A stretch of 40,323 nt of DNA from Actinomycetota bacterium (GCA_046734695.1 JBKPRS010000222.1:1-40323), one strand, 5' to 3'. Counted from the first letter of the stretch, positions 3,151 through 28,871 are shown. Numbers and translations: made by a program. The notes: generated by a model from the sequence alone, not told the origin.

Positions 3151-3204
3151 CTCAGCGCGGTTCTTCAGCCGCGGCTCAGCACTGCTTCAGCGGGCCTTTA
3201 AGCT
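3151..3204 (+). promoter_or_regulatory. Phased YTCAG direct-repeat array A plus a -10-like TAAGCT
   Basis: Sequence is CTCAGCgcggttCTTCAGCcgcggCTCAGCactgCTTCAGCgggccTTTAAGCT. TCAG cores sit at 3152, 3165, 3176 and 3187 (spacing 13, 11, 11). TAAGCT (TAnnnT) is at 3199-3204. The array lies in the 252-nt non-coding gap upstream of the flippase operon. Confidence 0.5.
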
Positions 3205-3317
3205 GGCGAGCCACACTGTGAGCACCGGATGACAAGTAAGGGCGGCCAGGTGTTCTCACCGCGACCAGCGACGCGCTCCCGCGTCGGCGCGAAGACAACG
3301 GCCCGGGCGGGCCAGGC

Positions 3318-5183: not shown

Positions 5184-5319
5184 GCGTGCCGCGCGAGAGC
5201 CGTGAAAACGCAATGTGTGTGGGCCGCCGGGCCGCAGCCGGCAGCCCTATTGTCCGTTCAGCTGGGAAGACTTGCCGATGATCCCGGCCCCCGACTCCAT
5301 GTCCCACCAAGAGGAAGCC

Positions 5320-8513: not shown

Positions 8514-8569
8514 CGGGCTGAAGGCGGGCAGGCGAACTTGGAAGCAGGACGAGAGGGCGGAGGCTGACG

Positions 8570-9889: not shown

Positions 9890-9953
9890 CGGGCCTTAAG
9901 CATACTGAATCATGCGATAGCATATGAATAAACACGGGCGGACAAAGGGGAAA
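9890..9953 (+). promoter_or_regulatory. Short AT-rich island with a direct repeat upstream of or overlapping the start of the giant secreted protein
   Basis: ttaAGCATACTGAATcatgcgatAGCATATGAATaaaca. The repeat AGCATA(C)TGAAT occurs at 9899-9910 and 9919-9929. The island is sharply AT-rich relative to its surroundings. An A/G-rich stretch AAAGGGG (9944-9950) precedes the alternative ATG at 9954. Confidence 0.35.
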
Positions 9954-12900: not shown

Positions 12901-13895
12901 TCAGCGGCGTCCACGACGACGGCATGCGCGCCTACGTCGACGACGTGCCGGTCGTCAACGACTGGAGCGCGGGCAACACCTCCTTCAGCGTCGACAAGCA
13001 GATGACCGGCGGCACCCATCAGCTGCGGGTGGAGTACTTCGAGTCCGGCGGCGGCGCCAAGGCAGAGTTCACCTACGACCGGATCGGCCCGGTGGGGACG
13101 TCGGCGCCGTCCGACGGCGGGTACCAGGCCGAGTACTTCGCCAACACCGACCTGTCCGGCACACCGGTGCTGACCCGGCAGGACAGCGCCGTCGACTTCA
13201 ACTGGGCCGACGGCGCGCCGGGCGACGGCGTGCCCGCCAACAACTTCTCGGCCCGCTGGACCAAGTCCCTCGTCGTGACGGAGGACATCTCGTACGAGTT
13301 CACCGTCACGGTCGACGACGGCGCCCGCCTCTACGTCGACGGGGTCAAGGTGCTGGACAAGTGGTTCGGCCAGGGAGGCACGTCCACGTCCACGGTCACC
13401 GTGCACCTGGCTCCCGGCACGCACCCGGTCGTGCTCGAGTACCTCGAGCTGGGTGGCGGCGCCGTCGCCCGGTTCGGCTACGAGACCAGCGCCGAACCTC
13501 CGCCCGACCCGCCACCACCGTTCGCGGCGGAGTACTTCGACAACCCCGAGCTGACCGGCACGCCGGTGCTCGCGCGGGTGGACGCCGAGCTCGACTTCGA
13601 CTGGGGAGGCGGCTCTCCGGACCCCGCCGTGCCCACCAACAACTTCTCGGCCCGCTGGACGAGGACCGAGTCCTACACGGAGGGCACCTACCGGTTCAGC
13701 GTCACCGGTGACGATGGGATCCGGGTGCTGGTCGACGGCGTCCTCGTCGTGGACGGCTGGTTCTACCAGGCCCCGACCACTTACTCCGCCGACGTGCCAT
13801 TGACGGCGGGACTGCATACCGTGGTCATCGAGTACTTCGAGTTCGCCGGAGGAGCGGTGGCGTCGTTCACCGAGACGAAGGTCGCCGATGGCTAG
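9924..13895 (+). CDS. Large secreted multidomain protein: glucose/sorbosone-dehydrogenase-type (PQQ-dependent-like) beta-propeller + PKD + Ig-like modules + five PA14 domains
   Basis: 1323-aa ORF. The signal peptide is [25 protein letters not shown]. The SGDH-like region includes [58 protein letters not shown] and NYGWP. The PKD motif is [30 protein letters not shown]. It is followed by five repeats of the PA14 pattern Y.AEYF.N......P...R....IDFDWG.GSP......N.FSARWT......G.Y.F....DDG.RL.VDG. An alternative start is at 9954. Confidence 0.9.
11919..13880 (+). repeat. Five tandem PA14-domain coding repeats (about 384-420 nt each)
   Basis: The units begin near 11919 (WTATYYDN), 12303 (YRAEYWNW), 12702 (YHATYWNL), 13122 (YQAEYFAN) and 13521 (FAAEYFDN). 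They are diverged at both protein and DNA level, so the duplication is not recent. Confidence 0.75.
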
Positions 13896-14559
13896 CGACG
13901 ACATCATCAACATCTCGTTCCACGGTGTGGGAGATCCGCTCGGGCCGCCGCGCGAGCCGGGTGAGCACGACTACTGGATCGGCCGTGACGCCTTCCTCTC
14001 GCTCCTGGACGAGGTGCAGGGTCGGGACGACGTCCGGCTGAGCTTCGACGACGGCAACGCGTCGGACGTGGAGGTCGCGCTGCCCGCCCTCGTCGAGCGC
14101 GGCATGACGGCCGACTTCTTCGTGGTGGCCGGCCGGCTCGGGAGCCCGGGCAACGTGGACGCCGCGGGCCTGGGCGCGCTGCGAGCCGCCGGCATGGGCG
14201 TCGGCACCCACGGCATGGAGCACCGGTCGTGGCGAGGCCTCGACGACGACGAGCTCGAGGTCGAGCTGGTCGAGGCCCGGCAGGTCATCGCCGAGGCGGT
14301 CGGGACGGCGGTCACCGCCGCCGCCCTTCCCCTCGGGCAGTACGACCGCACGGTCCTGGCCGCGCTGCGCAGGCATGACTACGAGGTCGTGTACTCCAGC
14401 GATGCCCGTCGTGTGCGGGAAGGCGCGTGGTTCCAGCCGCGGTACTCCGTGCGCGCCGGCGACACGCCGCGTTCGGTGCGCGAGACGGTCCTTGCGCCGC
14501 CCCGCGCCCACGAGCGCCTCCGGGGCCACCTCGCGGGGATCGCCAAGCGGTGGCGTTGA
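13888..14559 (+). CDS. Polysaccharide deacetylase (NodB homology domain, CE4-like)
   Basis: 223-aa ORF overlapping the upstream stop by 8 nt. NodB motif 1 is RLSFDDGNASD, followed by MTADFFVVAGRLG and GTHGMEHRSW. Confidence 0.85.
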   Translation: MASDDIINISFHGVGDPLGPPREPGEHDYWIGRDAFLSLLDEVQGRDDVRLSFDDGNASDVEVALPALVERGMTADFFVVAGRLGSPGNVDAAGLGALRAAGMGVGTHGMEHRSWRGLDDDELEVELVEARQVIAEAVGTAVTAAALPLGQYDRTVLAALRRHDYEVVYSSDARRVREGAWFQPRYSVRAGDTPRSVRETVLAPPRAHERLRGHLAGIAKRWR

Positions 14560-14562
14560 GCA

Positions 14563-15741
14563 ATGGCCTCAGGACCTGAGACGCCGGTGCGCCCTCATTG
14601 CCTGGTCTATGCGTCGTACTCGTTCAACGGCCACGGACCGTCCCAGAGCTGCGCGTCCATCGTGGCCAACTTTCCCGACGAGCTGTCGACGGAGATGGTC
14701 ATCGCTCGGGCCCGCACGCCGATGCCCGCCACGGTGCGGACCCTGCAGGCGTTGCCGCCCGTCGTGCGTGCCCTGCCGTGGCGGTTCGTCAGGAAGCACG
14801 CCGATGCTGCCGTCAACCGACGGTTCTCTGCTGCGCTCCGCCAGCACGATCCGGCCTCCACCGTGGTCTACATGTGGCCGGGTGCGCCCTTGTGGCTCAT
14901 CCGTGAGGCCCGCGAACGGGGCTTCCCGGTCGTCCGCGAGATGATCAACTGCACGTGCGCCACGCACGGCGAGATCCTCGACGCGGCCTACGAGGCGCTG
15001 GACATGCCGCCGGCTCATCTCGCGACGGCCCAGGTGATCGAGGACGAGATCCGGGAGCTCCACGAGTACGACTTCATGTTCGCCTCCAACCCCGAGGTGG
15101 AGGCGTCGCTGGAGCGCATCGGCATCCCGCATGACCGGATCCTGCCGGTGACGTTCGGCTGGACGTCGGACAAGTTCGCCCTGTCGGAGCCCGATCCGCG
15201 GCCGGAACGGGGAGTGCGGGCGCTTTTCGTGGGCATCATCGGCGTGCGCAAAGGGGTGCCTGAGCTGCTCGACGCGTGGCGCGATTCGGGCGTCGAAGGA
15301 GAGCTCGTCCTCGTCGGCAGCGTCGAGCCCGCCATCGCCGATCTCGTCGACCGCCATGTGCGCGACGGCCGGGTGAGGCTCACGGGGCACGTGAAGGACG
15401 TCGGTGCCAAGTACGGGAGCGCCGACATCTTCGTCTTCCCGACGCTGGAAGAGGGTGGCCCCCAGGTCACCTACGAGGCGGCCGGGTGCGGCCTGCCCAT
15501 CATCACGACGCCGATGGGCGCAGCCAGGCTCGTGGAGGACGGTCGCACGGGCATCGTCGTGCCCCCGGGGGATCGAGCGCAGTTGGCCGTCGCCCTGCGC
15601 ACGCTCGGCAACGACCCCGGGCTGCGGGCGCGCTACGGCGAAGCCGCCAGAGCGAGGGCCGGAGCGTTCGACTACCGCCACGTGGGCCTGGCCCGCGGCC
15701 GCCAGCTCGCCGAGATAGCGCTCAGCCGGCTGCCGAGCTGA
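14563..15741 (+). CDS. Glycosyltransferase family 4 (GT-B, Glycos_transf_1)
   Basis: 392-aa ORF with a C-terminal EX7E-type region, ADIFVFPTLEEGGPQVTYEAAGCGLPIITTPMGAARLVEDGRTGIVVPPGD. Confidence 0.9.
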   Translation: MASGPETPVRPHCLVYASYSFNGHGPSQSCASIVANFPDELSTEMVIARARTPMPATVRTLQALPPVVRALPWRFVRKHADAAVNRRFSAALRQHDPASTVVYMWPGAPLWLIREARERGFPVVREMINCTCATHGEILDAAYEALDMPPAHLATAQVIEDEIRELHEYDFMFASNPEVEASLERIGIPHDRILPVTFGWTSDKFALSEPDPRPERGVRALFVGIIGVRKGVPELLDAWRDSGVEGELVLVGSVEPAIADLVDRHVRDGRVRLTGHVKDVGAKYGSADIFVFPTLEEGGPQVTYEAAGCGLPIITTPMGAARLVEDGRTGIVVPPGDRAQLAVALRTLGNDPGLRARYGEAARARAGAFDYRHVGLARGRQLAEIALSRLPS

Positions 15742-15776: not shown

Positions 15777-16844
15777 CTAGCCGTTGCACGGCTCGTCGGC
15801 CACGACCCCGGTCACCTGGTAGTTGGCATCGATGGTGACCAGCTTGGCCTCCCAGCTCGGGTGCCTGGAGCAGTCCACTCCGTCCATCGGGCCGTACACC
15901 CAGGCGTGGTCCACGATTCGGAGCCCCGTCACGTTGCCCGGCACCTCGTGCCGGAACGTGTAGCCGCCACCGCTGACGAGTAGTCGGTCCACGGTATAGG
16001 TCCCGGTGTTGACGGCGGGGTCCACCACGAACCAGGGCGCCGTGCCGCACGAGGTCTCGAAGATGATCGTGTTGTTGCGGGCGGTCGCGCCCACGCCGTA
16101 CACCGCCTGCACCCCGTCCGAGTGGACGTCGTCGCACGCCGCCGTGCCTTCGTCGGCTCCGTGGATGCTGATGAAGGAGTTCTCCAGCGTGACAGGCCCG
16201 CAATCCGACAGGCGCGGCCCCTCGCCGCGCCCCAGCACCTCGATGTTCCGGGCGGTGTAGGACCCCTCACCGATCACCGGATAGTCGCCGGCTGTGAACC
16301 CGCCGGGCGCCTGCTTGAACGTGACGTTCTCGACCAGCATGTTGTGGCCGCACCCGGCGGGGGCATCCCCGAACTGGTTGGTGATGAACCCGCCGAGCAT
16401 CTCCACCCTGCGGATCGTCACGTTGTCGGCGAAGACGCTGATGCTCGCCCCGTCCGTGAAGCGGACGTCCTCGACGACCGTGCCGGGCTGGCGGATCTCC
16501 ATGTCGGTCGAGACCGTCTGCGCGGGCGTCCATCCCGCCGGCACGCCGGTGCTCGCGGGGTTGGGGAAGCCGCCGGGAGGCGGCGGAGTCGACGACGACT
16601 CGGGGGCGCCGGTCGTCTCGGGGGGCGCAGTCGTCGCAGAGGTCGGAGGAGGCTTGAGGGCGGGCGTGGCGGCGGGGGGAAGAGTCGTTCCCGAGTCCGC
16701 GCCGGCGGTCGCGGAACCCGCCGCCTCCACGAGGCGCGGGTCCGAGTCGCCGCCCCGGGTGGCCGCCACCGCGACCGCGGCGGCCACGACCACGACCGCC
16801 CCGACCAGGCCCAGGACGAGCTTGCGAGATCTGCCTACCGCCAT
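15777..16844 (-). CDS. Secreted or membrane-anchored right-handed beta-helix-like protein (candidate polysaccharide lyase/epimerase/hydrolase)
   Basis: The ORF track gives 15777..16925. I prefer the ATG at 16844 (MAVGRSRKLVLGLVGAVVVVAAAVAVAAT is a signal or anchor). A Pro/Thr/Ala linker follows, then repeated PbH1-like strands: NVTIRRVEMLGG, MLVENVTFKQ, YTARNIEVLG, VTLENSFISIHG and ATARNNTIIFE. The coding call is solid. The function is inferred. Confidence 0.75.
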   Translation of the reverse strand: MAVGRSRKLVLGLVGAVVVVAAAVAVAATRGGDSDPRLVEAAGSATAGADSGTTLPPAATPALKPPPTSATTAPPETTGAPESSSTPPPPGGFPNPASTGVPAGWTPAQTVSTDMEIRQPGTVVEDVRFTDGASISVFADNVTIRRVEMLGGFITNQFGDAPAGCGHNMLVENVTFKQAPGGFTAGDYPVIGEGSYTARNIEVLGRGEGPRLSDCGPVTLENSFISIHGADEGTAACDDVHSDGVQAVYGVGATARNNTIIFETSCGTAPWFVVDPAVNTGTYTVDRLLVSGGGYTFRHEVPGNVTGLRIVDHAWVYGPMDGVDCSRHPSWEAKLVTIDANYQVTGVVADEPCNG

Positions 16845-17064
16845 CGTGATCGTCGTCCTCTCGTCAGTGCCAGCAGAGGGCGGAAGTCGGGATGCGACCC
16901 GCCCGCTGCAGGTCGTGATCCCCATCCGTCACCTGACGTGTCCCCATGCGACTGGGGGAGATCATGCCCTGCCAGGATGTTTCTCGCCAGTAGTGGGGAG
17001 CATCGGCCTCCGGTGACCACCGTCGGTGGCCCCGCCCTCGGCCCCTCCCATCGTCTGCCCGTCG

Positions 17065-17334
17065 TCAGCCGAGCTGCTCGTCCACGAACGCGGCCAGGCT
17101 GCCGAGCGTCTCGAACACGTCCGCCGTCACCTCGTCGCCGTCGACCTCGATGGCGAAGCGCTCCTCGAGGGCGTAGATGAGCTCGACCACCGCCATCGAG
17201 TCGAGCTCGGGCAGGCTGCCGAGCAGTTCGGTGGCGGCGTCCATGGCGCCGGCGCGGGCTTCGTCGATGCCGAGCGTGGCGGACACGACGGAACGTACCG
17301 CGTCGAGCGTGGTGGGGGCGGTGCCGGTGTTCAT
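17065..17334 (-). CDS. Acyl/peptidyl carrier protein
   Basis: 89-aa reading frame at the 3' end of track ORF 17065..18165. It carries the phosphopantetheine attachment motif LGSLPELDSMAVVELI. Its ATG at 17334 overlaps the upstream stop (ATGA, 17331-17334). Confidence 0.85.
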   Translation of the reverse strand: MNTGTAPTTLDAVRSVVSATLGIDEARAGAMDAATELLGSLPELDSMAVVELIYALEERFAIEVDGDEVTADVFETLGSLAAFVDEQLG

Positions 17335-18575
17335 ACGAGGACCTCGGGAGGCGAAGGGTGGCTGAGGAAGGCGGTCGGGCTGGCGGTCAGCCCGTAGGCA
17401 CCGGCCTGGAAGACGACGACGAGGTCGCCGATCTCGGCCGGAGGCAGAGCGACGGAATCGGCCAGCAGGTCGAGCGGCGTGCACAGCACGCCGACCACGC
17501 TGGCGGTCTCGCGGCCTGCGCCCGCCTCCCCGCCCATGCGGGTCCCGAGCGCGACCGGGTAGTTCCGCCGGATCACCTGGCCGAAGTTGCCCGAGGCGGC
17601 GAGCTGGTGGTGCAGGCCGCCGTCGACGACGAGGAACACCTTGCCGCGCGACTCCTTGCGGTCGATCACCCGCGTGACGTAGACGCCGGCCTCGCCGACG
17701 ATGTAGCGCCCGAGCTCGAGGTTCAGGCGGGCGTCCGGCAGTCGGGGGCGCACGAGCTCGTCCAGCAGTCCAGCCAGGTTGGCGCCGATGGGCGCGATGT
17801 CCAGCGGCTGGTCCTTCTCGCCGTAGGGGATGCCGAAGCCACCGCCCACGTTGAGGTAGCGCACCGGGAGCGGGGAGTCCTCCGCCAGGGCCAGCGCCAG
17901 CTCGACCGTCTTGCGCTGGGTCTCGCAGAGGATGTCGGCCCGCAGGTTCTGCGATCCCGCGAAGATGTGGAAGCCGAGGAAGTCGACCTCCGCGACGGAC
18001 AGCTCCTTCAGCAGCGCGGGGACGCGCTCGGAGTCGACGCCGAACTGCTGGGGACCCCCGCCCATCCGCATGCCGGACCCCTTGACCTGGAAGTCGGGGT
18101 TCACCCGGACCGCCACCCGGGGCCGGATGCCGAGCTCGTCCCCGATGGCGGCGAGACGCTGCCACTCGGTCTCCGACTCCATCTCCACGGTCACGCCGGC
18201 GGCCACCGCCTGGGTCAGCTCGTCCGGACGCTTGCCCGGCCCGGCGAAGCTGATGCGCTCCTCCGGCATGGCGGTGTCGAGCGCGACGCGCAGCTCGCCG
18301 GCGGAGGCGACGTCGAACCCGTCGACAAGGCCCCGGAGATGGTGGACCACCGCGGGCATCGGGTTGGCCTTGATGGCATAGCTGAGGTCGATCCCGCCGG
18401 GCAGCAGCCGCCGGAGCTCGCCGACGCGCTCGGCGATCTTGGCCCGGTCGTAGGCGAAGAACGGCGTGCCGCCGACCCGCAGGGCCAAGCGGTCGATGGG
18501 GATCCCACCGACTGCCAGCACGCCGCCGTCGACCTCATAGCCGGCGATCGTGGGATGCACGCGAAGCTCGGTCAA
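17331..18575 (-). CDS. PLP-dependent decarboxylase, Orn/DAP/Arg decarboxylase family (fold type III)
   Basis: This is the 3' part of track ORF 17331..20039. It has the PLP-lysine motif LSYAIKANP, the phosphate-binding NVGGGFGIPY, and HIFAGSQ. A TTG start at 18575 overlaps the ligase stop (TTGA). An alternative GTG start is at 18560. Confidence 0.9.
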   Translation of the reverse strand: MTELRVHPTIAGYEVDGGVLAVGGIPIDRLALRVGGTPFFAYDRAKIAERVGELRRLLPGGIDLSYAIKANPMPAVVHHLRGLVDGFDVASAGELRVALDTAMPEERISFAGPGKRPDELTQAVAAGVTVEMESETEWQRLAAIGDELGIRPRVAVRVNPDFQVKGSGMRMGGGPQQFGVDSERVPALLKELSVAEVDFLGFHIFAGSQNLRADILCETQRKTVELALALAEDSPLPVRYLNVGGGFGIPYGEKDQPLDIAPIGANLAGLLDELVRPRLPDARLNLELGRYIVGEAGVYVTRVIDRKESRGKVFLVVDGGLHHQLAASGNFGQVIRRNYPVALGTRMGGEAGAGRETASVVGVLCTPLDLLADSVALPPAEIGDLVVVFQAGAYGLTASPTAFLSHPSPPEVLV

Positions 18576-20140
18576 GCCGTGAGCTCCTGGCGGAGCAGCG
18601 TGCGGTCGAACTTGCCGTTGGGTGAGCGGGGCAGCTCGGCGCGGACCACGATCTCGCGGGGCACCATGTACAGCGGCAGCTGTCCGCGGAGCTCGTCGAG
18701 CAGGGATGCGGCCTCGAACGCGGTGTCCGCCTTCGGGCTGACCACGAGCACCACGGCCTGGCCGAGGCGGTCGTCGTCCACGCCCAGGGCCACCGCGTCG
18801 CGGACGAGCCCGGTGCCGTAGGTGACCTCCTCGATCTCCGTCGGGGCGACCCGGTAGCCCGAGGTCTTGATCATGTCGTCCTTGCGGCCGACGAAGTAGA
18901 GGAAGCCCTCCTCGTCCCGCGTGACGATGTCCCCCGAGAACACCGCAGGCTCCGTGGTGCAGAGGCCGTCCTCGCGGTTGGGTGCGGGCCGGAAGCGCTC
19001 CGCCGTGCGCTCCGGATCGTTCCAGTAGCCCATCGCCACCAGCGCGCCGCGATGGACCAGCTCGCCCTCCTCGTTCGGATCGCAGAGCGAGCCGTCGTCC
19101 CGGACCACGAGGATCTCGGCGTCGGGGATCGCCTTGCCGATCGAGTCGGGCCGCCGGTCGACCTCGGCCGGGTCGAGGTAGGTGGAGCGGAACGCCTCGG
19201 TCAGGCCGTACATGAGGAACGGCGCGGCTCCGGGGAAGATGGCCCGCAGCCGATCGAGGGTGGCCCGGGGCATGCGTCCGCCGGTGTTGGCGAAGTAGCG
19301 CAGGGACGCGGAGGCCTGCGGGGTCCAGCGTTGCTCCGCGAGCTGGATCCACAACGGGGGCACGCATGTGAGCCCGGTCACCCCGTGCTTGGCGCACAGG
19401 CGGACCACATCGCCGGGCAGCAGGTAGTTCATGAGCACGACGTGCGCACCGGTGGAGAAGGCGGTCGTGAGCTGGCTGAAGCCGGCGTCGAAGCTGAGCG
19501 GCAGCGCCGCCAGGATCACGTCGTGGCAGTCGTTGCCCAGGTAGTGGCTGACGCTCTCGGCCCCCACGATGAGGTTGCGGTGCGAGAGGACGACGCCCTT
19601 GGGCCGCCCGGTGCTGCCCGACGTGTAGAGGATGGCCGCCATGTCGAGGTCGATCGCCCCGGCCTCGGCCGGCTCGGCACCCGACGAGGCCACCGTGGCC
19701 CAGTCGGTGATCTCGTAGCGGGCCCCGGGGCGGGCGGCTCGACCGTCGCCGACCAGGACGACCCGTTCGATCGTCTTGCACTCGGCGAGCTGGTCCTCGA
19801 GCTGGTCGAACCGGTCGGCCGAGGTGACCAGCACGCGAGCGCCGGAGTCGTCGATGATGTGGCCGACCTGGCGGGGCCGCAGCAGCGGGTTGACGGGGAC
19901 GAAGACGCCCCCGGCGATCGAGGTGCCGAACACGGAGACGACCGTCTCGACCCGCTTGTCCAGGTAGATGGCGACGCGGTGGCCGCGGCCGAGGCCGAGG
20001 CCCTGGAGCCCGGCGCCCAGGGCCGTGCAGCGCTGCCACAGCTCCCCGTAGGTGAGCGTGGTGGCCTTGAACGTCAGCGCCGGGCCGTCAGGGCGCCACG
20101 AAGCTGTCTCGGCGAGGATGTGGTGAAGTTGGCTGCGCAT
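18572..20140 (-). CDS. AMP-forming acyl-CoA/acyl-carrier-protein ligase (adenylate-forming ANL superfamily)
   Basis: 522 aa from the ATG at 20140 (MRSQLHHILAETASWRPDGPALTF). The core motifs are ILYTSGSTGRPKGV, GELVHRGALVAMGYW, SGDIVTRDEEGFLYFVGRKDDMIKTSGYRV and PRSPNGKFDR. Confidence 0.9.
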   Translation of the reverse strand: MRSQLHHILAETASWRPDGPALTFKATTLTYGELWQRCTALGAGLQGLGLGRGHRVAIYLDKRVETVVSVFGTSIAGGVFVPVNPLLRPRQVGHIIDDSGARVLVTSADRFDQLEDQLAECKTIERVVLVGDGRAARPGARYEITDWATVASSGAEPAEAGAIDLDMAAILYTSGSTGRPKGVVLSHRNLIVGAESVSHYLGNDCHDVILAALPLSFDAGFSQLTTAFSTGAHVVLMNYLLPGDVVRLCAKHGVTGLTCVPPLWIQLAEQRWTPQASASLRYFANTGGRMPRATLDRLRAIFPGAAPFLMYGLTEAFRSTYLDPAEVDRRPDSIGKAIPDAEILVVRDDGSLCDPNEEGELVHRGALVAMGYWNDPERTAERFRPAPNREDGLCTTEPAVFSGDIVTRDEEGFLYFVGRKDDMIKTSGYRVAPTEIEEVTYGTGLVRDAVALGVDDDRLGQAVVLVVSPKADTAFEAASLLDELRGQLPLYMVPREIVVRAELPRSPNGKFDRTLLRQELTA

Positions 20141-20209
20141 GTGCCTGCTCGTGCGGGGGCCGGGGACCCCTCCGCCGGATCCCGGTCGGGGAACAGTCTT
20201 GCCGACCAG

Positions 20210-20250
20210 GCTGAAGTGGCGCTGAGGGGCGCCTGAAGTCAGCCTAAAGC
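20210..20250 (-). promoter_or_regulatory. Phased YTCAG direct-repeat array D (three units) plus an A/T element
   Basis: The plus strand reads GCTGAAGtggcGCTGAGgggcgcCTGAAGtcaGCCTAAAGC. CTGA cores sit at 20211, 20222 and 20233 (spacing 11, 11). The array lies in the divergent gap between the ligase operon (start 20140) and the GNAT gene (start 20310). Confidence 0.5.
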
Positions 20251-20309: not shown

Positions 20310-21173
20310 ATGGCCGTGCGCGTGCAACCCATCAGCGACGACGACCTCGCCCGCGTGGCCGAGTTCTTCCACACCCACCTCAACCAGCGCGTGCCGGCAG
20401 CCGCGTGGGTCGCGGCCTTCACGCCGCCTTGGACCTTCGAGCAGCCCAACCATGGCTTCATGCTGCTCGACGACGCCGGGGCGGTCATCGGGGCCTACGC
20501 CGCGCTGTACTCCGAACGCACGCTCGCGGACCGGCAGGAGAGGATCTGCAACCTGGCGGCGTGGTGCGTGCGCGAGGACCAGCGGTTCCACAGTCTCCGG
20601 CTGCTCAAGGCGCTGCTCGCCCAGGAGGGCTACACGTTCACGGACCTCTCGCCCAGCGGGAACGTCGTGCCGCTCAACGCCCGCCTCGGCTTCACCGAGC
20701 TCGACCCCACCACGGTGCTCGTGCCCACGCTGCCCTGGCCGCCACGGCGCGGCGTCCGGGTGAGCTCGGATCCCGACGCCGTGAGCGCGGCGCTCTCCGG
20801 CGGCCAGCGGGACCTGTACCGGGACCACGCCGGCCTGGCGGGCGCCCGCCACGCCATCCTGGTCGAGGGCGACCGGTCGTGCTGGGTAGTGTTCCGCATG
20901 GATCGGCGCAAGCAACTGCCGCCGGTGTTCGCCTCCATCCTCCATGTCAGCGACCGGGACCTCTTCCGCCGGCGGATCCGCTCCGTCGCCAGCCACCTCC
21001 TGGTTCACCACCGGGCCGCCGCCCTGCTGATCGAACACCGGGTGACCGGCCCGCTCGCGGTATGGCCCCGGTTCACGGTGGGGGCGCCGAGGCGGAAGAT
21101 GGTCCTGAGCTCGACGATGCCCGCCGACCAGGTGGACTACTTCTACTCCGAGCTCATGTGCCTGTCGTGGTAG
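20310..21173 (+). CDS. GNAT-fold acyltransferase-like protein (two-lobed, ~287 aa)
   Basis: The track ORF is 20283..21173. I prefer the ATG at 20310 (MAVRVQPISDDDLARVAEFF). The N-terminal half is GNAT-like: GFMLLDDAGAVIGAYAALYSER...ICNLAAWCVREDQRFHSLRLLKALL...ARLGF. Its 3' end overlaps the convergent GT2 gene by 20 nt. Confidence 0.7.
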   Translation: MAVRVQPISDDDLARVAEFFHTHLNQRVPAAAWVAAFTPPWTFEQPNHGFMLLDDAGAVIGAYAALYSERTLADRQERICNLAAWCVREDQRFHSLRLLKALLAQEGYTFTDLSPSGNVVPLNARLGFTELDPTTVLVPTLPWPPRRGVRVSSDPDAVSAALSGGQRDLYRDHAGLAGARHAILVEGDRSCWVVFRMDRRKQLPPVFASILHVSDRDLFRRRIRSVASHLLVHHRAAALLIEHRVTGPLAVWPRFTVGAPRRKMVLSSTMPADQVDYFYSELMCLSW

Positions 21174-22203
21174 CGGGCCGGAGCCCGGCGAGCGCCCGGA
21201 CCTCCCGGTAGCGCTTCAGCACGCGCAGGAAGTGCTCGTGTCGGGCCGTGGCCTCCTGGCGGCGCTCGTCGTTGCGCGTCGTCGAGGCCACGGCCCAGAA
21301 ACCGGCCGCCCGGCTGGCGGCATGGGCCCACAGCAGGCCCGACATCGCCCAGCCCGCGAGATGCCCGTCGTGGTGGTCGGCGTAGCGGACCAGCCCGGCC
21401 ATGCCGAGGAGGTCCCGCCGCTCGCTGAGCTTGCGCCCGGCCACGCCGTCGAGATGGATGATGTCGCCCACCGGGGCGAAGCGCAGGACCCAGCCTCGGT
21501 CGCGCATCCTGCGGCACCAGTCCGCTTCCTCGCCGCAGAAGAAGTATCCGTCGTCGAGCAGCCCGACATCGTCGACCAGCTCCCGGCGCGTCGCCAGGTA
21601 GCAGCCCGTCACCACCTCGACGTCGCGCTCGCTGTCGCGGTGCCAGTGCGTCATGCGCTCCCGGCCGAGGAAGCGGGGCCACGGCAGCTTGGCCAGCCCG
21701 GTCAGGCCCAGGAAGGTGTTCAGGACGGACGGGTCGCGGAAGCACGAGGGCTGCAGGCTGCCGTCGGCGTTGAGGACCCGGCAGCCCAGCGTCCCGACGT
21801 CCGGATGCTCGTCGAGATAGCGGACCGTGGCGGCCAGCACGTCGTCGAGCACGATCGTGTCCGGGTTGAGGAGGAGGACGTAGCGACCCGTCGCCAGCTC
21901 GAGCCCCGCATTGCAGCCCGCGGCGAACCCGAGGTTCTCGGGGTTGCGGACGAGCCGCGCGTCAGGGAAGCGCTCCGCCACCATGTCGGCCGAGCCGTCG
22001 CCGGAGGCGTTGTCGACCACGACCAGCTCCGCCGAGATGCCCCGCACCCCGGCCACCACCGACTCCAGGCAGGCCTGGAGCTCGTCGCAGGTGTTCCAGC
22101 TGACGAGGATCACCGACAAGTCGGGGGACGACCACCGGGCCGCGCCGGGGGATGGCGCGGCCGCCGGTACGCGGGCGGATCGCACCGAGCTCGGTGGCGT
22201 CAT
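21154..22203 (-). CDS. Glycosyltransferase family 2
   Basis: 349 aa from the ATG at 22203, which overlaps the upstream stop (ATGA, 22200-22203). Motifs are LSVILVSWNTCDELQACLESV, VVVDNASGDGSADMV, NLGFAAGCNAGL and LLLNPDTIV. Confidence 0.9.
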   Translation of the reverse strand: MTPPSSVRSARVPAAAPSPGAARWSSPDLSVILVSWNTCDELQACLESVVAGVRGISAELVVVDNASGDGSADMVAERFPDARLVRNPENLGFAAGCNAGLELATGRYVLLLNPDTIVLDDVLAATVRYLDEHPDVGTLGCRVLNADGSLQPSCFRDPSVLNTFLGLTGLAKLPWPRFLGRERMTHWHRDSERDVEVVTGCYLATRRELVDDVGLLDDGYFFCGEEADWCRRMRDRGWVLRFAPVGDIIHLDGVAGRKLSERRDLLGMAGLVRYADHHDGHLAGWAMSGLLWAHAASRAAGFWAVASTTRNDERRQEATARHEHFLRVLKRYREVRALAGLRPATTTGT

Positions 22204-23843
22204 GGGCCCACTTCGGCGGTATGCCGCAGGGCCGCTGAGGGATCGGCCGGCGTCGGGGCGGTCGACGCCGACCGTCGCAGGGCGCTTAGGCCCCGGCGAA
22301 GGATGGCGGGCACGGTGTCGATCATGACTGCGATGTCCATCGCCACCGACCAGTTGTCCACGTAGAAGAGATCGAGCCGCCGGTACTCGTCGAACGAGGC
22401 CTTGTGGTTGGCCTCGACCTGCCACAGGCCGGTGAGCCCGGGCTTGACGATGTGCCGCCGCTTCAGCTCGTCGTCGAACTCGGCGATCTCCGACGGGAGG
22501 GCGGGGCGAGGCCCGACGATGCTCATGCGCCCGGTGAGCACGTTGATCAGCTGGGGCAGCTCGTCGATCGCGGTGGCGCGGAGCACGCTGCCGATCGGCG
22601 TGATCCGGGGATCGCTCGACACCTTGAACAGCGGGCCGTGGCGCTCGTTGCGATGACGCAGCTCGGAGAGCCGAGCCTCGGCGTCGACCTCCATCGTGCG
22701 CATCTTGACCAGCGTGAACGGCTCCCCGTCGCGGCCGATGCGGATCTGGCGGAACAGCACCGGCCCCCGGTCGTTCAGCTTGATCAGCAGGGCGGCCACC
22801 GCCATGACCGGAGCGGTCAGCACCAGGAGCAGCGCGGCCATCACGATGTCGAGCGCCCGCTTGACGGCGAGCTGCGTCCTCGAGTGGTGGGGCGGGCGCA
22901 CCAGCGAGAAGGGCTCGTGGGCCAGCGGTATCGTCTGGAGGCGGGCGCCGGAGACGCCGGTGAGGCCCGTGGACAGGTAGACGGCGGTGCCGGACGCGCT
23001 CAGCTCGACGACGAGCTGGTTCAGCGTGGGGCTTCCCAGCCCGTTCACCGCCACGAGGACCCCCGCAGCGCCGGTGCGGCGCACGACGTCGCCGGCGTGC
23101 TCGAGGCCGCCCAGGAACGGCGCGCTCACGGCGACGGTGCCGCTCGGCACGGGACGATCGCCGACGATCCCTATGGCGTCGAAGCCGGCCTCGGGGTTGA
23201 GCTCCAGGAACTCGACGAGCGCGGCGGCCTCGGCGGCCTCCCCGGCGACCACGACGGCGACCCGGAAGTCACCGCGTGCCCGCCTGCTCACGAGCCACAC
23301 GTCGAAGCAGTAACGGGCCGATGTGGCGACCACCAGCGACGCTGCCAGCGACGTCAGCACGAGCACCGGGGCCGTGTCACCCAGCAGCGCCTGCCCGGCG
23401 AGGGTGGCGAGCCCCGACAGGCCCAGGCTCAACAGCACGCGGCCGAGGGCGCCGGAGCGCACGCCGCTGAGCGGATGACGGTAGAGGTCGAGGGCTGAGA
23501 AGCAGAGGAGAGAGGAGACCACGCCGAGCGCGATCGTGGCGAGGACGGCGCCGGCACCCCAGGGGAGGTCCCGGCCCGCGCCCGCGAGGGCCCAGCCCAG
23601 CGACCACCCGAGGAGCAGGGACACGGCGTCGACGACGAGGAGCTGGCGACCGGGCGCGACGGGCACCCGCGCGGTCGTGTGCTCGGGCCGGTCTGCGCCG
23701 GCCGGGGCGAGGTCCGGGCCGCCCGCCGTCAGCGTCGCGGACGCCAAAGCGACGTGTGTGGCATGTCCCCGGGCGGGTATGGCCCGCGGCTCGTCCCGTT
23801 CGTGAAGGAGAAGCAATCTCGACTCTCGTGTACCGCCGCCCAT
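22200..23843 (-). CDS. Polyprenyl-phosphate glycosyl-1-phosphate transferase (WbaP/EpsB-type priming sugar transferase)
   Basis: 547-aa ORF with N-terminal TM helices and a central Rossmann-like region. The bacterial sugar transferase domain reads KRALDIVMAALLLVLTAPVMAVAALLIKLNDRGPVLFRQIRIGRDGEPFTLVKMRTM...DELPQLINVLTGRMSIVGPRP...KPGLTGLWQV. Confidence 0.9.
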   Translation of the reverse strand: MGGGTRESRLLLLHERDEPRAIPARGHATHVALASATLTAGGPDLAPAGADRPEHTTARVPVAPGRQLLVVDAVSLLLGWSLGWALAGAGRDLPWGAGAVLATIALGVVSSLLCFSALDLYRHPLSGVRSGALGRVLLSLGLSGLATLAGQALLGDTAPVLVLTSLAASLVVATSARYCFDVWLVSRRARGDFRVAVVVAGEAAEAAALVEFLELNPEAGFDAIGIVGDRPVPSGTVAVSAPFLGGLEHAGDVVRRTGAAGVLVAVNGLGSPTLNQLVVELSASGTAVYLSTGLTGVSGARLQTIPLAHEPFSLVRPPHHSRTQLAVKRALDIVMAALLLVLTAPVMAVAALLIKLNDRGPVLFRQIRIGRDGEPFTLVKMRTMEVDAEARLSELRHRNERHGPLFKVSSDPRITPIGSVLRATAIDELPQLINVLTGRMSIVGPRPALPSEIAEFDDELKRRHIVKPGLTGLWQVEANHKASFDEYRRLDLFYVDNWSVAMDIAVMIDTVPAILRRGLSALRRSASTAPTPADPSAALRHTAEVGP

Positions 23844-23889
23844 GTCCGCCCTTCCGCCCTTGCCTCGTGTCCGACTGTCGCAACCAGGT

Positions 23890-23929
23890 CTGAAGTGCTG
23901 CTGAAGCCGTGCTGAGGGTTGCCTTAACC
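23890..23929 (-). promoter_or_regulatory. Phased YTCAG direct-repeat array B (three units) plus an A/T element
   Basis: The plus strand reads CTGAAGtgctgCTGAAGccgtgCTGAGggttGCCTTAACC. CTGA cores sit at 23890, 23901 and 23912 (spacing 11, 11). The array lies 47 nt upstream of the priming-transferase ATG (23843). Confidence 0.5.
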
Positions 23930-23996: not shown

Positions 23997-24017
23997 CGTC
24001 TGCGAGCCCGTTCCGCG

Positions 24018-24824
24018 CTAGATCAGCGCGAGCGAGCGCCGCCGCAGCGGCCGGAAGGCGCTGCTGTGCCGCGCCTCGCACCGGCTCCGGCGGTGTGCCC
24101 TGGTCCTCGCCGGCTTGGCCGCAGGCTCGACGCCCTCGACCGGCCGCAGTGCATAGCCCGCGCCGCGCACGGTGTGGATGATCCGGGGACCGGCACTCTC
24201 GAGCTTGCGCCGCAGCGCCGAGACGTGCACCTCGACCAGGTTCACCTTGTGCTGGTCGAAGCCCCACACCATGGTGAGGAGCTGGGTCTTCGACAGGACC
24301 TGGCTGCGGTGCCGGGAGAAGGTCGCCAGCAGGGCGAACTCGATGGCGGTCAGCTCGACGGGCGTACCGGCCCGCTCGACCGTGTGCGCCGCCTCGTCGA
24401 TCACGAGGTCACCCAGCTCGATGACCGGGGAGCTCGACCCGTTCCGCCGGGTCAGCGCGGTCACCTTGCAGGCAAGCTCGGACAGGACGAACGGCTTCGC
24501 CATCACCTCGTCGGCGCCAGCCCGCAACGCGACGAGCCGGTCCTCGAGCTGCGTCGCCGCACTGAGCACCACGAGAGGGATGTCGGTCACGATCCGGATC
24601 CGGTCGACGACCGGCCGTTCGTCCACACCTTCGCTCTCGGCGTCGATCACCAGCAGCTGCGGTCGCAGCTCCGGGAGCAGCCGTTCGGCCGAGCGCCACG
24701 ACGCCGTGCGCTCGACCACATGATTGTCATTTCGCAGAGTGTGCACGATTGCTTCTGCGAGAAACTCGTCCCCGCTTATCACGAGAACGCGCGCGCCATT
24801 AGCGCCTTGTCCGCCCGTTGACAT
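24018..24824 (-). CDS. OmpR/PhoB-family winged-helix response regulator (orphan, with no adjacent histidine kinase)
   Basis: 268-aa ORF. The receiver has RVLVISGDEF, the phospho-Asp context QLLVIDAESEG, VVLSA and MAKPF. The winged-helix region reads LGDLVIDEAAHTVERAGTPVELTAIEFALLATFSRHRSQVLSKTQLL...VEVHVSALRRKLE...IHTVRGAGYALR. A ~40-aa basic tail follows. Confidence 0.9.
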   Translation of the reverse strand: MSTGGQGANGARVLVISGDEFLAEAIVHTLRNDNHVVERTASWRSAERLLPELRPQLLVIDAESEGVDERPVVDRIRIVTDIPLVVLSAATQLEDRLVALRAGADEVMAKPFVLSELACKVTALTRRNGSSSPVIELGDLVIDEAAHTVERAGTPVELTAIEFALLATFSRHRSQVLSKTQLLTMVWGFDQHKVNLVEVHVSALRRKLESAGPRIIHTVRGAGYALRPVEGVEPAAKPARTRAHRRSRCEARHSSAFRPLRRRSLALI

Positions 24825-24886: not shown

Positions 24887-24927
24887 CTGTGCCCTATGGA
24901 CTGTGGGCGGCAGCATAGAAGGCACAG
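24887..24927. promoter_or_regulatory. Imperfect 41-nt palindrome/stem-loop upstream of the response regulator gene
   Basis: CTGTGCC-CTATG-ga-CTG-tgggcgg-CAG-CATAG-aa-GGCACAG, giving 15 potential base pairs. It lies 63-103 nt upstream of the regulator ATG (24824). Confidence 0.35.
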
Positions 24928-25084
24928 CGCGGCCACACAAGTCACCTCGGTGTCGCGAGCTTGCCGAAACCGCTCCCCGTGCTGGATCGGCGGTGTCAGC
25001 GGGGCGATCGCCGCGAACGGTGGCAGACCCGTGTGGCCGGCGCAACCCGTACGACTCTCTGCGTCCGACGGTGCCCCCGGTCGG

Positions 25085-26050: not shown

Positions 26051-26096
26051 CTCAGGCTTCAGTGACGCCTCAGGTTTGCCTCAGGTGGCCTTCAGC
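26051..26096 (+). promoter_or_regulatory. Phased YTCAG direct-repeat array C (five units)
   Basis: CTCAGgCTTCAGtgacgcCTCAGgtttgcCTCAGgtggccTTCAGC. TCAG cores sit at 26052, 26059, 26070, 26081 and 26092 (spacing 7, 11, 11, 11). The array is flanked by CCCTAACCC (26015-26023) and by the inverted repeat GTCCGC/GCGGAC (26097-26117). It lies in the divergent gap between the 25085..26005 gene and the dehydrogenase gene. Confidence 0.55.
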
Positions 26097-26197
26097 GTCC
26101 GCGATCAGCATGCGGACCCGAGCGGCAGGAAATCGCGGACAGGGACTGCTCTCTCGGAAGGTGACTTGATGGCAGCCAGGGCGGACAGGGCGGCGAC

Positions 26198-27574
26198 ATG
26201 ACGGGTGGACGCGCATGGAGTGCGGTAAGGACGAACGAGGCGGCCGGCCCGAGGGGCCCACGCGTTGCCGTCTTCGGGCTCGGCTACGTGGGGACCGTAT
26301 CGGCGGCGTGCCTGGCGAGCCGTGGATATACGGTCATCGGCGTCGACGTGAGCCCCGACAAGGTCACGATGGTGGCCGAGGGGCGAACTCCGGTGGTGGA
26401 GGAGCGGATCGGTGACCTGATCGCGGAGCAGGTTGCTGCCGGCCGGCTCAGCGCCACCAGCGACGCGGCCGCAGCGGTCGCCGCGACGGACCTGGCGCTG
26501 GTGTGTGTCGGCACACCCTCGACGCCGAGCGGGAGCCTGCTCACCGCCTATCTCGAGCAGGTCGCCGAGCAGATCGGGGCGGCGCTGGTCGGGCGGACGG
26601 ACCGCTACACGGTCGTCATCCGCTCCACCATGCTGCCGACGACCTGCGAGGAGATCGTCGCCCCCCGCCTGGAGGCGGCGTCGGGACTGTGTGCCGGCGT
26701 CGACTTCGGTCTGGCGGTGAACCCGGAGTTCCTGCGCGAGGGCAGCTCCGTCCGTGACTTCTTCGACCCGCCCAAGACCGTGATCGGCGAGATCGACGAG
26801 GCCAGCGGCGACGCGGTCGCCCGGCTCTACGAGGGCCTGCCCGGCCCGGTGTACCGGGTGCCGCTCGGCGTGGCGGAGATGATCAAGTACGCCGACAACA
26901 GCTTCCACGCCCTGAAGACCGGCTTCGCCAACGAGATGGGCGCGGTGTGCAAGGCGCTCGGCCTCGACAGCCACGCCGTGATGGGGATCCTCACGGCGGA
27001 CACGAAGCTCAACATCTCCCCGGCCTACCTGCGTCCCGGGTACGCCTTCGGCGGCTCCTGCCTCCCCAAGGACCTCCGTGCGCTCGTCCACCGGGCCCGC
27101 CGGGCGGACGTGTCGATCCCGATCCTGGAGAGCATCCTGCCGTCGAACGAGGGCCAGATCGACCGGGTGTTCCGGACGATCGAGGCCACCGGCAAGCGCC
27201 GGGTCGGGCTGCTCGGACTGTCGTTCAAGCCCGGTACGGACGACCTGCGCGAGAGCCCCATGGTGGCCCTCGCCGAGCGCCTGCTCGGCCGGGGCTTCGA
27301 GCTCATGATCCACGACCCGCAGGTGGCGGTGTCCCGGCTGCTCGGCGCCAACCGCGCCTACGTGGACCAGCGCATCCCCCACCTGTCCCGGCTCATGGCG
27401 AGCTCGGCCCAGGAGGTCGTGGCCCACGCCGAGGTGATCGTGGTGGGAGCGGCGGACCCCGACGCGCTGGCCGAGCTGCGTGAGGCCGATGGCCGCATCA
27501 TCGTCGATCTGGTCCGGTTCCCCGGCTCCGAGGACTACGAGGGCGACGGGAGGTACATCGGTGTCGGATGGTAG
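26198..27574 (+). CDS. Nucleotide-sugar 6-dehydrogenase, GDP-mannose 6-dehydrogenase (AlgD)-like
   Basis: 458-aa ORF. Motifs are VAVFGLGYVGTVSAACLASRGYTVIGVDV, VCVGTPS, NPEFLREGSSVRDF, the catalytic-Cys motif FGGSCLPKDLRAL, and GLSFKPGTDDLRESP. The C-terminus ends in GVGW. From memory, length and motifs resemble AlgD more than UDP-glucose dehydrogenases. Substrate specificity is inferred. Confidence 0.9.
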   Translation: MTGGRAWSAVRTNEAAGPRGPRVAVFGLGYVGTVSAACLASRGYTVIGVDVSPDKVTMVAEGRTPVVEERIGDLIAEQVAAGRLSATSDAAAAVAATDLALVCVGTPSTPSGSLLTAYLEQVAEQIGAALVGRTDRYTVVIRSTMLPTTCEEIVAPRLEAASGLCAGVDFGLAVNPEFLREGSSVRDFFDPPKTVIGEIDEASGDAVARLYEGLPGPVYRVPLGVAEMIKYADNSFHALKTGFANEMGAVCKALGLDSHAVMGILTADTKLNISPAYLRPGYAFGGSCLPKDLRALVHRARRADVSIPILESILPSNEGQIDRVFRTIEATGKRRVGLLGLSFKPGTDDLRESPMVALAERLLGRGFELMIHDPQVAVSRLLGANRAYVDQRIPHLSRLMASSAQEVVAHAEVIVVGAADPDALAELREADGRIIVDLVRFPGSEDYEGDGRYIGVGW

Positions 27575-28871
27575 GCGCCGGCCCGGCCCCCGGGTCCTCA
27601 TCCTGGTGGAGAACCTCTCCGTCCCGTTCGACCGCCGGGTCTGGCAGGAGTGCCGCGCCCTGACCGATGCCGGCTACCGGGTCGAGGTGATCTGCCCGCA
27701 GGGCGTCAAGCAGGACACGGAGCCCTACGCCGAGATCGGCGGCGTGCGCATCCACCGCTACCCGCTCAAGGCGGCGACGGGCGGCCCTGCGGGGTACGTC
27801 CGCGAGTACGGCACCGCGCTCTGGCGCACGCTGCGCATCGCACGGCGCCTGTCCCGGGAGGAGCCCTTCGACGTCGTCCAGGCGTGCAACCCGCCGGACC
27901 TCCTCTTCCTGATCGCCCTGGCGATTCGCCACACCGGGGCGCGCTTCATGTTCGACCACCACGACCTCGTGCCGGAGCTGTTCGAGTCACGCTTCGCCTC
28001 CGGGCCCCGGGTGCTGCATCGGGTGTCGTCACTGCTCGAACGCCTGACCTTCCGGACCGCGGACGCGGTGATCAGCACCAACGACAGCTACCGCTGGGCC
28101 GCGCTGACGCGCGGGGGACTGCCGCCGGATCGGGTGCGGGTGGTCCGCAGCGCCCCGGACCTGTCGCGCTTCGTCCCGGTCGCCCCCGATCCCGCCCTCA
28201 AGCGGGGGAAGCGCCACCTCGCCTGCTACCTGGGCGTGATGGGGCCTCAGGACGGCGTCGACTACGCGCTCCGCGCCCTCGCCCACCTGCACGGCCCGCT
28301 GGGTCGCGACGACCTGCACACCACGTTCATCGGCAGCGGCGACGCCTTCGACGACCTGGTCGCGCTGGCCGGCCGCCTCGGCCTCGACGACGTCGTGGAG
28401 TTCACGGGGCGGGTGCCGGACGAGACCGTGCAGCGGTACCTGTCGACCGCCGACGTCTGCTTGTCGCCGGACCCGAAGAACCCGCTCAACGACGTGTCGT
28501 CGATGAACAAGGTCGTCGAGTACATGGCCATGAGCCGCCCCCTGGTCTCGTTCGACCTGCGGGAGGCCCGGGTCACGGCCTCCGATGCGGCTGTCTACGC
28601 GCCCGACAACGACGAGATCCGCTTCGCCGAGCTGACCGCCGAGCTGCTGGACGATCCCGAGCGCCGCGAGCGCATGGGGGCCATCGGCCGTCGCCGCGTG
28701 GAGGCGAACCTCTCGTGGGAGACCTCGCGCACCAACCTGCTGGCAGCTTACGAGGACCTGCTCGACAGCCCGATGCGCCGGCAGACGGACCGCCGGGCCA
28801 TCCCGCGTGTGCCCGAGGCCATCCCCCCGCAACCGATCGCGGCCGGGGCGGGCAGCTCCAGCGCTGCCTGA
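27561..28871 (+). CDS. Glycosyltransferase family 4 (GT-B)
   Basis: The track ORF is 27480..28871. I prefer the GTG at 27561, which follows GGGAGG (27548-27553). Motifs are RVLILVENLSVPFDRRVWQECRALTDAGYRVEVICP and FDHHDL, with a C-terminal Glycos_transf_1-like region DVCLSPDPKNPLNDVSSMNKVVEYMAMSRPLVSFDL. Confidence 0.9.
   Translation: MSDGRRRPGPRVLILVENLSVPFDRRVWQECRALTDAGYRVEVICPQGVKQDTEPYAEIGGVRIHRYPLKAATGGPAGYVREYGTALWRTLRIARRLSREEPFDVVQACNPPDLLFLIALAIRHTGARFMFDHHDLVPELFESRFASGPRVLHRVSSLLERLTFRTADAVISTNDSYRWAALTRGGLPPDRVRVVRSAPDLSRFVPVAPDPALKRGKRHLACYLGVMGPQDGVDYALRALAHLHGPLGRDDLHTTFIGSGDAFDDLVALAGRLGLDDVVEFTGRVPDETVQRYLSTADVCLSPDPKNPLNDVSSMNKVVEYMAMSRPLVSFDLREARVTASDAAVYAPDNDEIRFAELTAELLDDPERRERMGAIGRRRVEANLSWETSRTNLLAAYEDLLDSPMRRQTDRRAIPRVPEAIPPQPIAAGAGSSSAA

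Follow-up and report, generated by a model that had tools for sequence, protein, structure and literature searches.

PHO boxes consist of direct repeat units of 11 bp with seven conserved and four free positions (PMC4415409), and the sites of the Mycobacterium tuberculosis regulator PhoP are similar (PMC4832192). At these PhoP sites a 4-bp spacer is required, and cooperative binding can extend to trimers and tetramers (PMC4832192). In activation complexes of M. tuberculosis PhoP solved by cryo-electron microscopy (cryo-EM), a dimer, a tetramer and a hexamer occupy two, four and six units, respectively, and the downstream sites displace the contact between the −35 element and region 4 of sigma-A (PMC11825685). 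Here we describe four arrays of 11-bp repeats with the word gCYTCAG in a stretch of 40,323 nucleotides from an Actinomycetota bacterium (GCA_046734695.1, JBKPRS010000222.1:1-40323; this whole stretch is hereafter called the window). Each of them is located 5' of an operon of an exopolysaccharide (EPS) cluster, which also encodes a candidate array-binding protein, an orphan response regulator of the OmpR/PhoB family. We consider it probable, by analogy with the systems above, that the arrays are PHO-box-like operators that replace the −35 element and are bound by two tandem dimers of the cluster-encoded regulator, which would activate the four EPS operons.

The arrays, and two further TCAG words in their immediate neighbourhood, are listed below with the score of each array in a four-unit position weight matrix (PWM).

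3162..3201, plus strand: array A, 5' of the wzx operon, with TCAG at 3165, 3176 and 3187 and a degenerate TTAA at 3198 (35.1 bits)
3152..3155, plus strand: additional TCAG, 13 nt 5' of array A and not in phase with it, of uncertain status
20211..20250, minus strand: array D, with TTAG (T at 20247) followed by TCAG with T at 20236, 20225 and 20214 (41.2 bits)
23890..23929, minus strand: array B, with TAAG (T at 23926) followed by TCAG with T at 23915, 23904 and 23893 (40.8 bits)
26056..26095, plus strand: array C, with four TCAG at 26059, 26070, 26081 and 26092 (42.5 bits)
26052..26055, plus strand: off-phase TCAG 7 nt before unit 1 of array C, not conserved in orthologues (GCAG in L003, CGGG in L002)

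TCAG, or CTGA in the case of the minus-sense arrays B and D, was found at every coordinate that an earlier reading of this DNA (hereafter the original prediction) had given for the four arrays. The window has a G+C content of 72% and contains 208 TCAG words on its two strands. A mechanical search of both strands revealed chains of at least three TCAG at exact 11-bp spacing in only four places, which were arrays A–D. Over the whole window there were nine pairs and five triples with this spacing, all of them inside the four array gaps, and any other spacing between 5 and 33 gave 0–5 pairs each. Dinucleotide-preserving shuffles (n = 500) yielded means of 0.84 for pairs and 0.004 for triples, and never more than one triple, and therefore the phasing is not due to chance and the predicted 11-nt arrays are real. 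In addition, the PWM scored the arrays at 35–42 bits and the next-best site of the window at 4.6 bits, indicating that there are no partial arrays elsewhere in it. The scan gave no array in the housekeeping third of the window, in agreement with the original prediction, and none in the regulator's own promoter gap (24825-25084) or in the divergent GT2/WecG gap (29781-29935). The statement that every promoter gap of the cluster carries an array thus holds for the four gaps that had been named and not for these last two.

When the arrays were aligned on their last unit and read in the sense of the downstream gene, four phased slots were evident in each. Their contents are TCAG, TCAG, TCAG and TTAA in array A; TAAG and three TCAG in array B; TTAG and three TCAG in array D; and four TCAG in array C, one end unit being often degenerate (TAAG, TTAG or TTAA). 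The three to five repeats per array initially proposed are present, but they amount to four phased units each once the degenerate words in the fourth slot are counted. The fifth unit attributed to array C has to be withdrawn, its core at 26052 being 7 nt out of phase and unconserved, and among the cores assigned to array A those at 3165, 3176 and 3187 are phased and that at 3152 is not. The four slots are filled in every array, an even number of units as for tandem dimers, and the A-type array of locus L007 has five. Among orthologues TAAG and TCAG are swapped at the same phased slot, as in array B, and the core is therefore T-(C/A)-A-G. A logo built from the 140 units of 35 distinct arrays showed information at −2 (C), −1 (Y) and the T, C, A and G of the core and a weak signal for G at −3; positions +4 to +7 carried about 0 bits. 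The result is an 11-bp unit of seven plus four positions, with the consensus gCYTCAG followed by four free bases. The C or G that had been placed after TCAG was no more informative than background, the informative flank being the upstream C and Y. The units are direct (head-to-tail) and lie on a single strand in each array, with no inverted arrangement, and the spacers and flanks of arrays A–D are mutually unrelated. The OmpR/PhoB-type architecture recognised by the original prediction agrees with these direct repeats of 7+4 = 11 bp (PMC4415409; PMC4832192).

Downstream of each array a −10-like hexamer was identified. These hexamers, and the promoter of the regulator, are as follows.

3212..3217, plus strand: −10-like hexamer CACACT, 10 nt past array A (L007 has GACACT at the equal offset)
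20195..20200, minus strand: −10-like hexamer AAGACT, 10 nt past array D (GAGACT in orthologues)
23874..23879, minus strand: −10-like hexamer GACAGT, 10 nt past array B
26106..26111, plus strand: −10-like hexamer CAGCAT, 10 nt past array C, conserved in orthologues
24912..24940, minus strand: the regulator's own promoter, TTGTGT, 17 nt and TATGCT (canonical −35/−10), without a TCAG array

The motif nAnnnT was present at +14 to +19 after the last unit, leaving a gap of exactly 10 nt, in 35 of 35 distinct arrays and in all 61 arrays (of 62) that were not cut by a contig end. In relatives it is mostly GAGACT, CAGCAT or GACAGT. At promoter B, the sole one checked, inspection by eye did not find a TTGACA-like −35 hexamer at spacers of 16–18 nt. 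The arrays are always oriented toward the EPS operon, as had been predicted for the YTCAG sense, and are located 47–105 nt before the start codon. The previously proposed range of 47–125 nt is right at its lower end; the larger value came from array A, for which the distance is probably about 50 nt if GTG at ~3251 is the start. The start codon of this operon is uncertain and can be either this GTG, which is preceded by AGGGCGG, or 3318. Gaps C and D are divergent, with a DUF6492 gene beside array C and a 296-aa unknown gene beside array D. In both gaps the distal end of the array lies only about 50 nt from the start codon of the opposite gene, and the divergent promoters must therefore overlap the arrays.

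The closest genomic relatives of the regulator locus were metagenome-assembled genomes (MAGs) of Acidimicrobiales, and a Streptomyces origin was for this reason rejected. Genome and metagenome scans, together with look-ups of distant homologues, provided an orthologous set of 41 loci (445 kb) whose regulators are 56–100% identical, and 18 unrelated loci (204 kb, mostly 62–72% G+C) were used as controls. An exact look-up of the window regulator gave contigs of 4 kb or less only. Arrays scoring at least 30 bits were present in 36 loci of the orthologous set, 62 in total, all of them 5' of EPS operons; the controls contained no array of at least 24 bits, their best score being 16. Five loci outside the PWM training, with regulators 56–68% identical (L052, L053, L055, L057 and L058), gave 34–44 bits and the same 10-nt gap to nAnnnT. 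The two expectations on which the original prediction depended were thus borne out, in that phased arrays were found neither elsewhere in the window nor in the control DNA and in that the orthologous clusters conserve them.

Within one promoter type the cores are kept and the spacers drift. In array C, for instance, the spacer after unit 2 reads GTTTG, GAGAG, GTGAG, GATCG or CAGAG across orthologues, and all four units are kept in L003, L007, L019-L022 and others. Array D is conserved in L001, L003, L020, L021 and L024, array B is the most widely conserved of the four, and an A-type array is also found 5' of the Wzx gene in L007. Furthermore, the arrays stay with their genes through locus rearrangement. 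The dehydrogenase has been relocated downstream of the priming transferase in L004, L029 and L030 with its array retained, and L052, L053 and L058 each have one array, directed toward a fused EPS operon that is transcribed divergently. L007 has two identical B-type arrays with their −10 hexamer (10956-11020 and 17532-17596), each before a paralogue of the priming glycosylphosphotransferase, the promoter and the transferase gene having been duplicated together. The linkage of the arrays to this regulator clade and to EPS promoters is exclusive. As a separate observation, a deletion in L031 (2919-2990) has removed array B and left the stop codon of the regulator almost adjoining the conserved opening codons of the priming transferase; this locus retains a C-type array before the dehydrogenase at 6718 (minus strand).

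The protein proposed to bind the arrays is encoded between arrays B and C.

24018..24824, minus strand: orphan OmpR/PhoB-family response regulator, candidate array-binding protein, with recognition helix VNLVEVHVSALRRKLE and a C-terminal tail of about 40 aa

The regulator has 268 aa and matched the Pfam families Response_reg (41 bits) and Trans_reg_C (80 bits), that is, a receiver followed by a C-terminal winged helix. It had originally been described as an orphan OmpR-family protein, which is confirmed by these domains and by the lack of a histidine kinase among the window genes annotated with Pfam and NCBIfam. With the same domains and no BTAD, an identity as a small SARP was rejected. The best solved relative was M. 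tuberculosis PrrA (structure 1YS6, E = 6e-42), and the protein could be aligned over its full length to the structures of PrrA and PhoP. Its scores against NCBIfam equivalogs were 150.2 bits for MtrA (cut-off 300), 112.6 for CseB (350) and 137.5 for PhoB TIGR02154 (296). All are far under the cut-off, as holds for every NCBIfam equivalog, and the regulator is not an equivalog of MtrA, CseB or PhoB.

The recognition helix VNLVEVHVSALRRKLE does not vary among the orthologues or among homologues as distant as 50% identity. The repeat word, too, is unchanged in all readable loci, down to 56% regulator identity. The helix (NLVEVHVSAL) aligns with N212-V-V-E215-S-Y-V-S-Y220-L of M. tuberculosis PhoP, from which it keeps N212 and E215 and differs by S216V, Y217H and Y220A. 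In the crystal structure of PhoP with DNA, N212 and E215 contact C7, A8, G9 and C10 of the 7-bp word TCACAGC, and V213, Y217 and Y220 read the 5' T4 and C5 (PMC4832192). By this analogy, the kept Asn and Glu and the three changed residues would fit a unit that shares CAG with that of PhoP but differs on its 5' side (CYT-CAG versus TCA-CAG-C).

If the conserved hexamer is taken as the −10 element, transcription would start at a point that places the units at about −59, −48, −37 and −26, and the array would span roughly from −60 to −22. Two tandem dimers (a tetramer) of the regulator would then occupy the four units on one helix face, an assembly suggested by the resemblance of the four-unit arrays to the tetramer arrangement of the PhoP cryo-EM complexes. 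The promoter-proximal dimer could stand in for the contact of sigma region 4 with the −35 element and recruit RNA polymerase, in the manner seen in structures of PhoP activation complexes. In this manner one regulator would turn on four EPS operons jointly, namely those for wzx-wzy export and polymerisation, for the ligase, decarboxylase and carrier protein, for the priming transferase and GT2, and for the sugar-nucleotide dehydrogenase and GT4, and would itself be expressed from an ordinary −35/−10 promoter lacking an array. Three observations favour activation over repression: the −10 hexamers are weak and no −35 match was seen, the geometry is constant, and where an array is missing a strong canonical promoter is present instead. 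Overall, the interpretation given in the original prediction is supported, with corrections to the number of units and the claim concerning all promoter gaps.

Several points weigh against this activation by the cluster regulator. The −10-like hexamers lack T at position 1, and a consensus promoter and terminator scan of 19900-26400 found no promoter, such a scan being uninformative for activator-dependent or high-G+C promoters. Motif and helix are both invariant, there is no co-variation linking the protein to the site, and it is consequently by linkage and by analogy that regulator and arrays are connected. For the loci used in training, the PWM scores are circular in part. The span scanned was about 10 kb around each regulator, and arrays at greater distance or other binders are possible. 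Finally, one sublineage (L005, L032, L033 and L038) has a regulator with the same helix and no array in the 4–10 kb available. In its gene order the regulator comes first, with Wzz/PCP, Wzx, Wzy, GT2 and the priming transferase behind it on the same strand, and the last of these has a canonical TTGAAT-17-TATTTT promoter at the place where relatives have array B (L033 10560-10620).

In another reading, the arrays are bound by a different winged-helix protein encoded elsewhere, either an OmpR-family regulator with a kinase or one of SARP type, the cluster regulator doing something else. The array-less sublineage of L033, in which the regulator is present, would be explained by it, and L055 has a second OmpR-family regulator 4 kb away. 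SARPs likewise use heptamer repeats with 11-bp periodicity that overlap the −35 element (PMC10972967), and it is by analogy that we infer binding of the arrays by the cluster regulator. However, 36 of 41 loci have their arrays no more than a few kb from this regulator, even where it is only 56% identical and despite several rearrangements, and its helix is as invariant as the motif. Apart from the regulator, the 40-kb window contains no gene for a recognisable DNA-binding protein, be it a SARP (BTAD) or another, and the conserved Asn and Glu match the helix that reads CAG (PMC4832192). We regard a binder encoded elsewhere as unlikely. Repression would keep the cluster regulator on the arrays and change the sign of its action: as a repressor or a dual switch, it would occlude RNA polymerase between −60 and −22 or control the divergent DUF6492 and 296-aa genes. 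The arrays do cover DNA needed by RNA polymerase, the opposite promoters of the divergent gaps C and D must overlap them, and regulators of PhoP type repress as well as activate (PMC11825685). Nevertheless, promoters with such poor −10 elements and, in B, no −35 match by eye would be weak and need no repressor; the fixed 10-nt gap, with every array pointing toward the EPS operon, is as expected for class II activation; and in the array-less sublineage a strong canonical promoter is present instead. A mainly repressing or dual role appears quite unlikely to us, although less so for the divergent genes of gaps C and D.

The strand-specificity of the repeats relative to the downstream gene, 47–105 nt before start codons, would also be expected if they acted in RNA, as a leader element for an RNA-binding protein, or if they were a duplicated or mobile promoter cassette with no sequence-specific regulation. 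Strict phasing by 11 nt, one helical turn, with free spacers nevertheless has no rationale in RNA; the conserved −10-like hexamer downstream suggests that the arrays are probably not transcribed; and no Rfam family was matched. Copies of one cassette would not be expected to have the unrelated spacers and flanks seen among the four arrays. We consider both forms of this explanation very improbable, and activation through tandem dimers of the cluster regulator is the reading retained in what follows.

With respect to the input that the regulator receives, its receiver departs from the usual pattern in the window lineage. At the end of beta1, 'VLVISGDEF' (24785-24800, minus strand), the first acidic residue of the pocket is replaced by G, N, K, R or Q in the lineage at least 70% identical, giving the motif S-(G/N/K/R/Q)-D-(E/D), and in more distant homologues the motif reads A-D-D-E or T-E-D-D. 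The window lineage retains the phospho-acceptor Asp, the Ser/Thr and the Lys, and several distant homologues lose the conserved Lys (AKPF changed to VTPF, AIPF or ALPV). No kinase gene was found near the regulator in any locus examined, nor within 10 kb of it in L055, L057 and L058. In addition, regulators at least 70% identical share a C-terminal extension of their last ~40 codons (24018-24140, minus strand), ...GRC(E/D)xR...(F/Y)RPLR(R/S)RSLAL-(A/T/I), and distant homologues end otherwise, in ...VVA, ...LAS or ...RTA. Such a conserved extension is unusual among OmpR-family proteins and may be a degron-like hydrophobic C-terminus or a site for a basophilic Ser/Thr kinase.

Single-sequence folds and a direct search for pairing arms revealed a hairpin in the 5' leader of the regulator (24860-24910, minus strand), about 50 nt before the start codon, with an invariant loop GGGCACAGG at 24886-24894. 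Its stems of 6–9 bp exist in at least four different lineage versions that are mutually compensating (CAGTCCAT/ATGGGCTG, CGGTCCAC/GTGGACCG, TGCGGTC/GACCGCA and GCGGTT/AACCGC). A second hairpin and then a T-rich run precede the ribosome-binding site. The first hairpin is missing in four of the regulators that are 56–68% identical (L052, L053, L055 and L057), and L058 (60%) has a related hairpin with a GGGCACACGG loop 171 nt before the start codon. Rfam gave no match at the gathering threshold in the whole window and none with E up to 1 in 24780-25120. The regulator could on this basis be a kinase-less, possibly phosphorylation-independent master switch, whose level, set through the leader RNA element, controlled proteolysis or both, would determine EPS production, the four tetramer operators reading out its concentration. 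We consider this proposal unlikely.

The operons downstream of the arrays were annotated by means of Pfam and NCBIfam and contain the following genes.

3252..15741, plus strand: target operon 1 (array A), with Wzx flippase, Wzz-like protein, Wzy, acyltransferase, PA14/GSDH/PKD protein, polysaccharide deacetylase and GT1
15777..20140, minus strand: target operon 2 (array D), with AMP-dependent ligase, PLP decarboxylase, carrier protein and a 382-aa unknown protein
21154..23843, minus strand: target operon 3 (array B), with priming polyprenyl glycosylphosphotransferase (TIGR03025) and GT2
26198..28871, plus strand: target operon 4 (array C), with UDP-glucose/GDP-mannose dehydrogenase and GT4

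The sequence (A)GGGCGG recurs 4–6 nt before the likely starts of wzx, the priming transferase, the regulator and the dehydrogenase (3241-3247, 23851-23865, 24829-24838 and 26186-26192) and of their orthologues, and may be a local Shine-Dalgarno variant or something more specific. The decarboxylase of operon 2 belongs to TIGR03099, the exosortase-A-associated type (584 bits, cut-off 478). The triad of ligase, PLP decarboxylase and carrier protein (17065-20140, minus strand) is of the type tied by NCBIfam to the EPS systems of exosortase A (PEP-CTERM), and no exosortase was recognised in the window annotation of this actinobacterial EPS cluster. The wzx operon also encodes a protein of 1323 aa (9924-13895, plus strand) that combines a glucose/sorbosone-dehydrogenase beta-propeller, a PKD domain and five PA14 domains, and fragments of this gene are present in L057. 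The EPS locus adjoins one housekeeping block, with gatB, LemA, dihydroxy-acid dehydratase and an MDMPI-like gene, both in the window (30889-40323) and in L058 (10710-19700). As the regulator of L058 is just 60% identical, this common block indicates that the chromosomal position of the EPS locus is old.

Among described systems, M. tuberculosis PrrA and MtrA are the actinobacterial OmpR-family proteins with the best sequence matches to the regulator. Both have partner kinases (PMC12757749), in contrast to the regulator described here, near which none was found. The recognition helix of PrrA is NVVDVFIGYL and differs from NLVEVHVSAL. To our knowledge, no EPS role of PrrA or MtrA has been described. 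The box of M. tuberculosis MprA may contain CTCAG; the motif found was that of Corynebacterium glutamicum MprA (TKTTAAGAAM), and we make no claim on a likeness.

The SARP promoters of Streptomyces antibiotic clusters (ActII-ORF4, DnrI, AfsR) resemble the situation proposed here in having a cluster-situated activator and one regulator for several operons (PMC10972967). Their sites, as the arrays here, comprise at least three heptamer direct repeats with 11-bp periodicity in the sense strand, at or overlapping the −35 element (PMC10972967). SARPs are nevertheless composed of an N-terminal winged helix and a BTAD, whereas the regulator has an N-terminal receiver and a C-terminal winged helix, and no BTAD protein was found among the open reading frames of the window. 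The repeat word is CYTCAG here and TCGAG-like in SARP sites. In addition, the product of this cluster is a polysaccharide rather than an antibiotic, and the organism belongs to Acidimicrobiia.

The likeness is greatest with the PHO-box promoters of actinobacterial PhoP and Escherichia coli PhoB, which are also built from head-to-tail 11-bp units of seven plus four positions. In those systems tandem dimers occupy two, four or six units, of which the proximal ones take over the role of the −35 element immediately 5' of the −10, the same arrangement that is proposed for this locus (PMC4415409; PMC4832192; PMC11825685). The cognate regulators have, as the one described here, a receiver and a winged helix. 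The PhoP unit TCACAGC shares CAG with gCYTCAG, and the residues reading it, N212 and E215, are conserved. The core word is different, CYTCAG as against GTTCACC or CTGTCAT (PMC4415409) or TCACAGC, and the regulon is an EPS locus instead of the phosphate genes of the Pho regulon. With respect to PhoB and PhoP, the regulator also lacks an adjacent kinase and, in this lineage, the first acidic pocket residue, and has a conserved 40-aa C-terminal tail. Membership of the Pho regulon proper was rejected on the PhoB score (137.5 against 296), the EPS targets and the different core word. Neither this regulon nor its motif was found described in a full-text literature search. From sequence, then, EPS control can be predicted in uncultured soil Acidimicrobiales, through a single regulator and its 7+4-bp word in four operators, one for each of four operons, and the PWM can annotate this EPS regulon in dozens of MAGs. 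The locus also offers a natural example of activator-dependent promoter modules that travel with their genes in rearrangement and can be swapped for canonical promoters. As regards mechanism, it confirms rather than extends what is known of PhoB/PhoP-type promoters. The type of site is well known, and what appears to be new is a cluster-situated orphan OmpR-family regulator with the 7-bp word gCYTCAG and a predicted four-operon EPS regulon in uncultured Acidimicrobiales.

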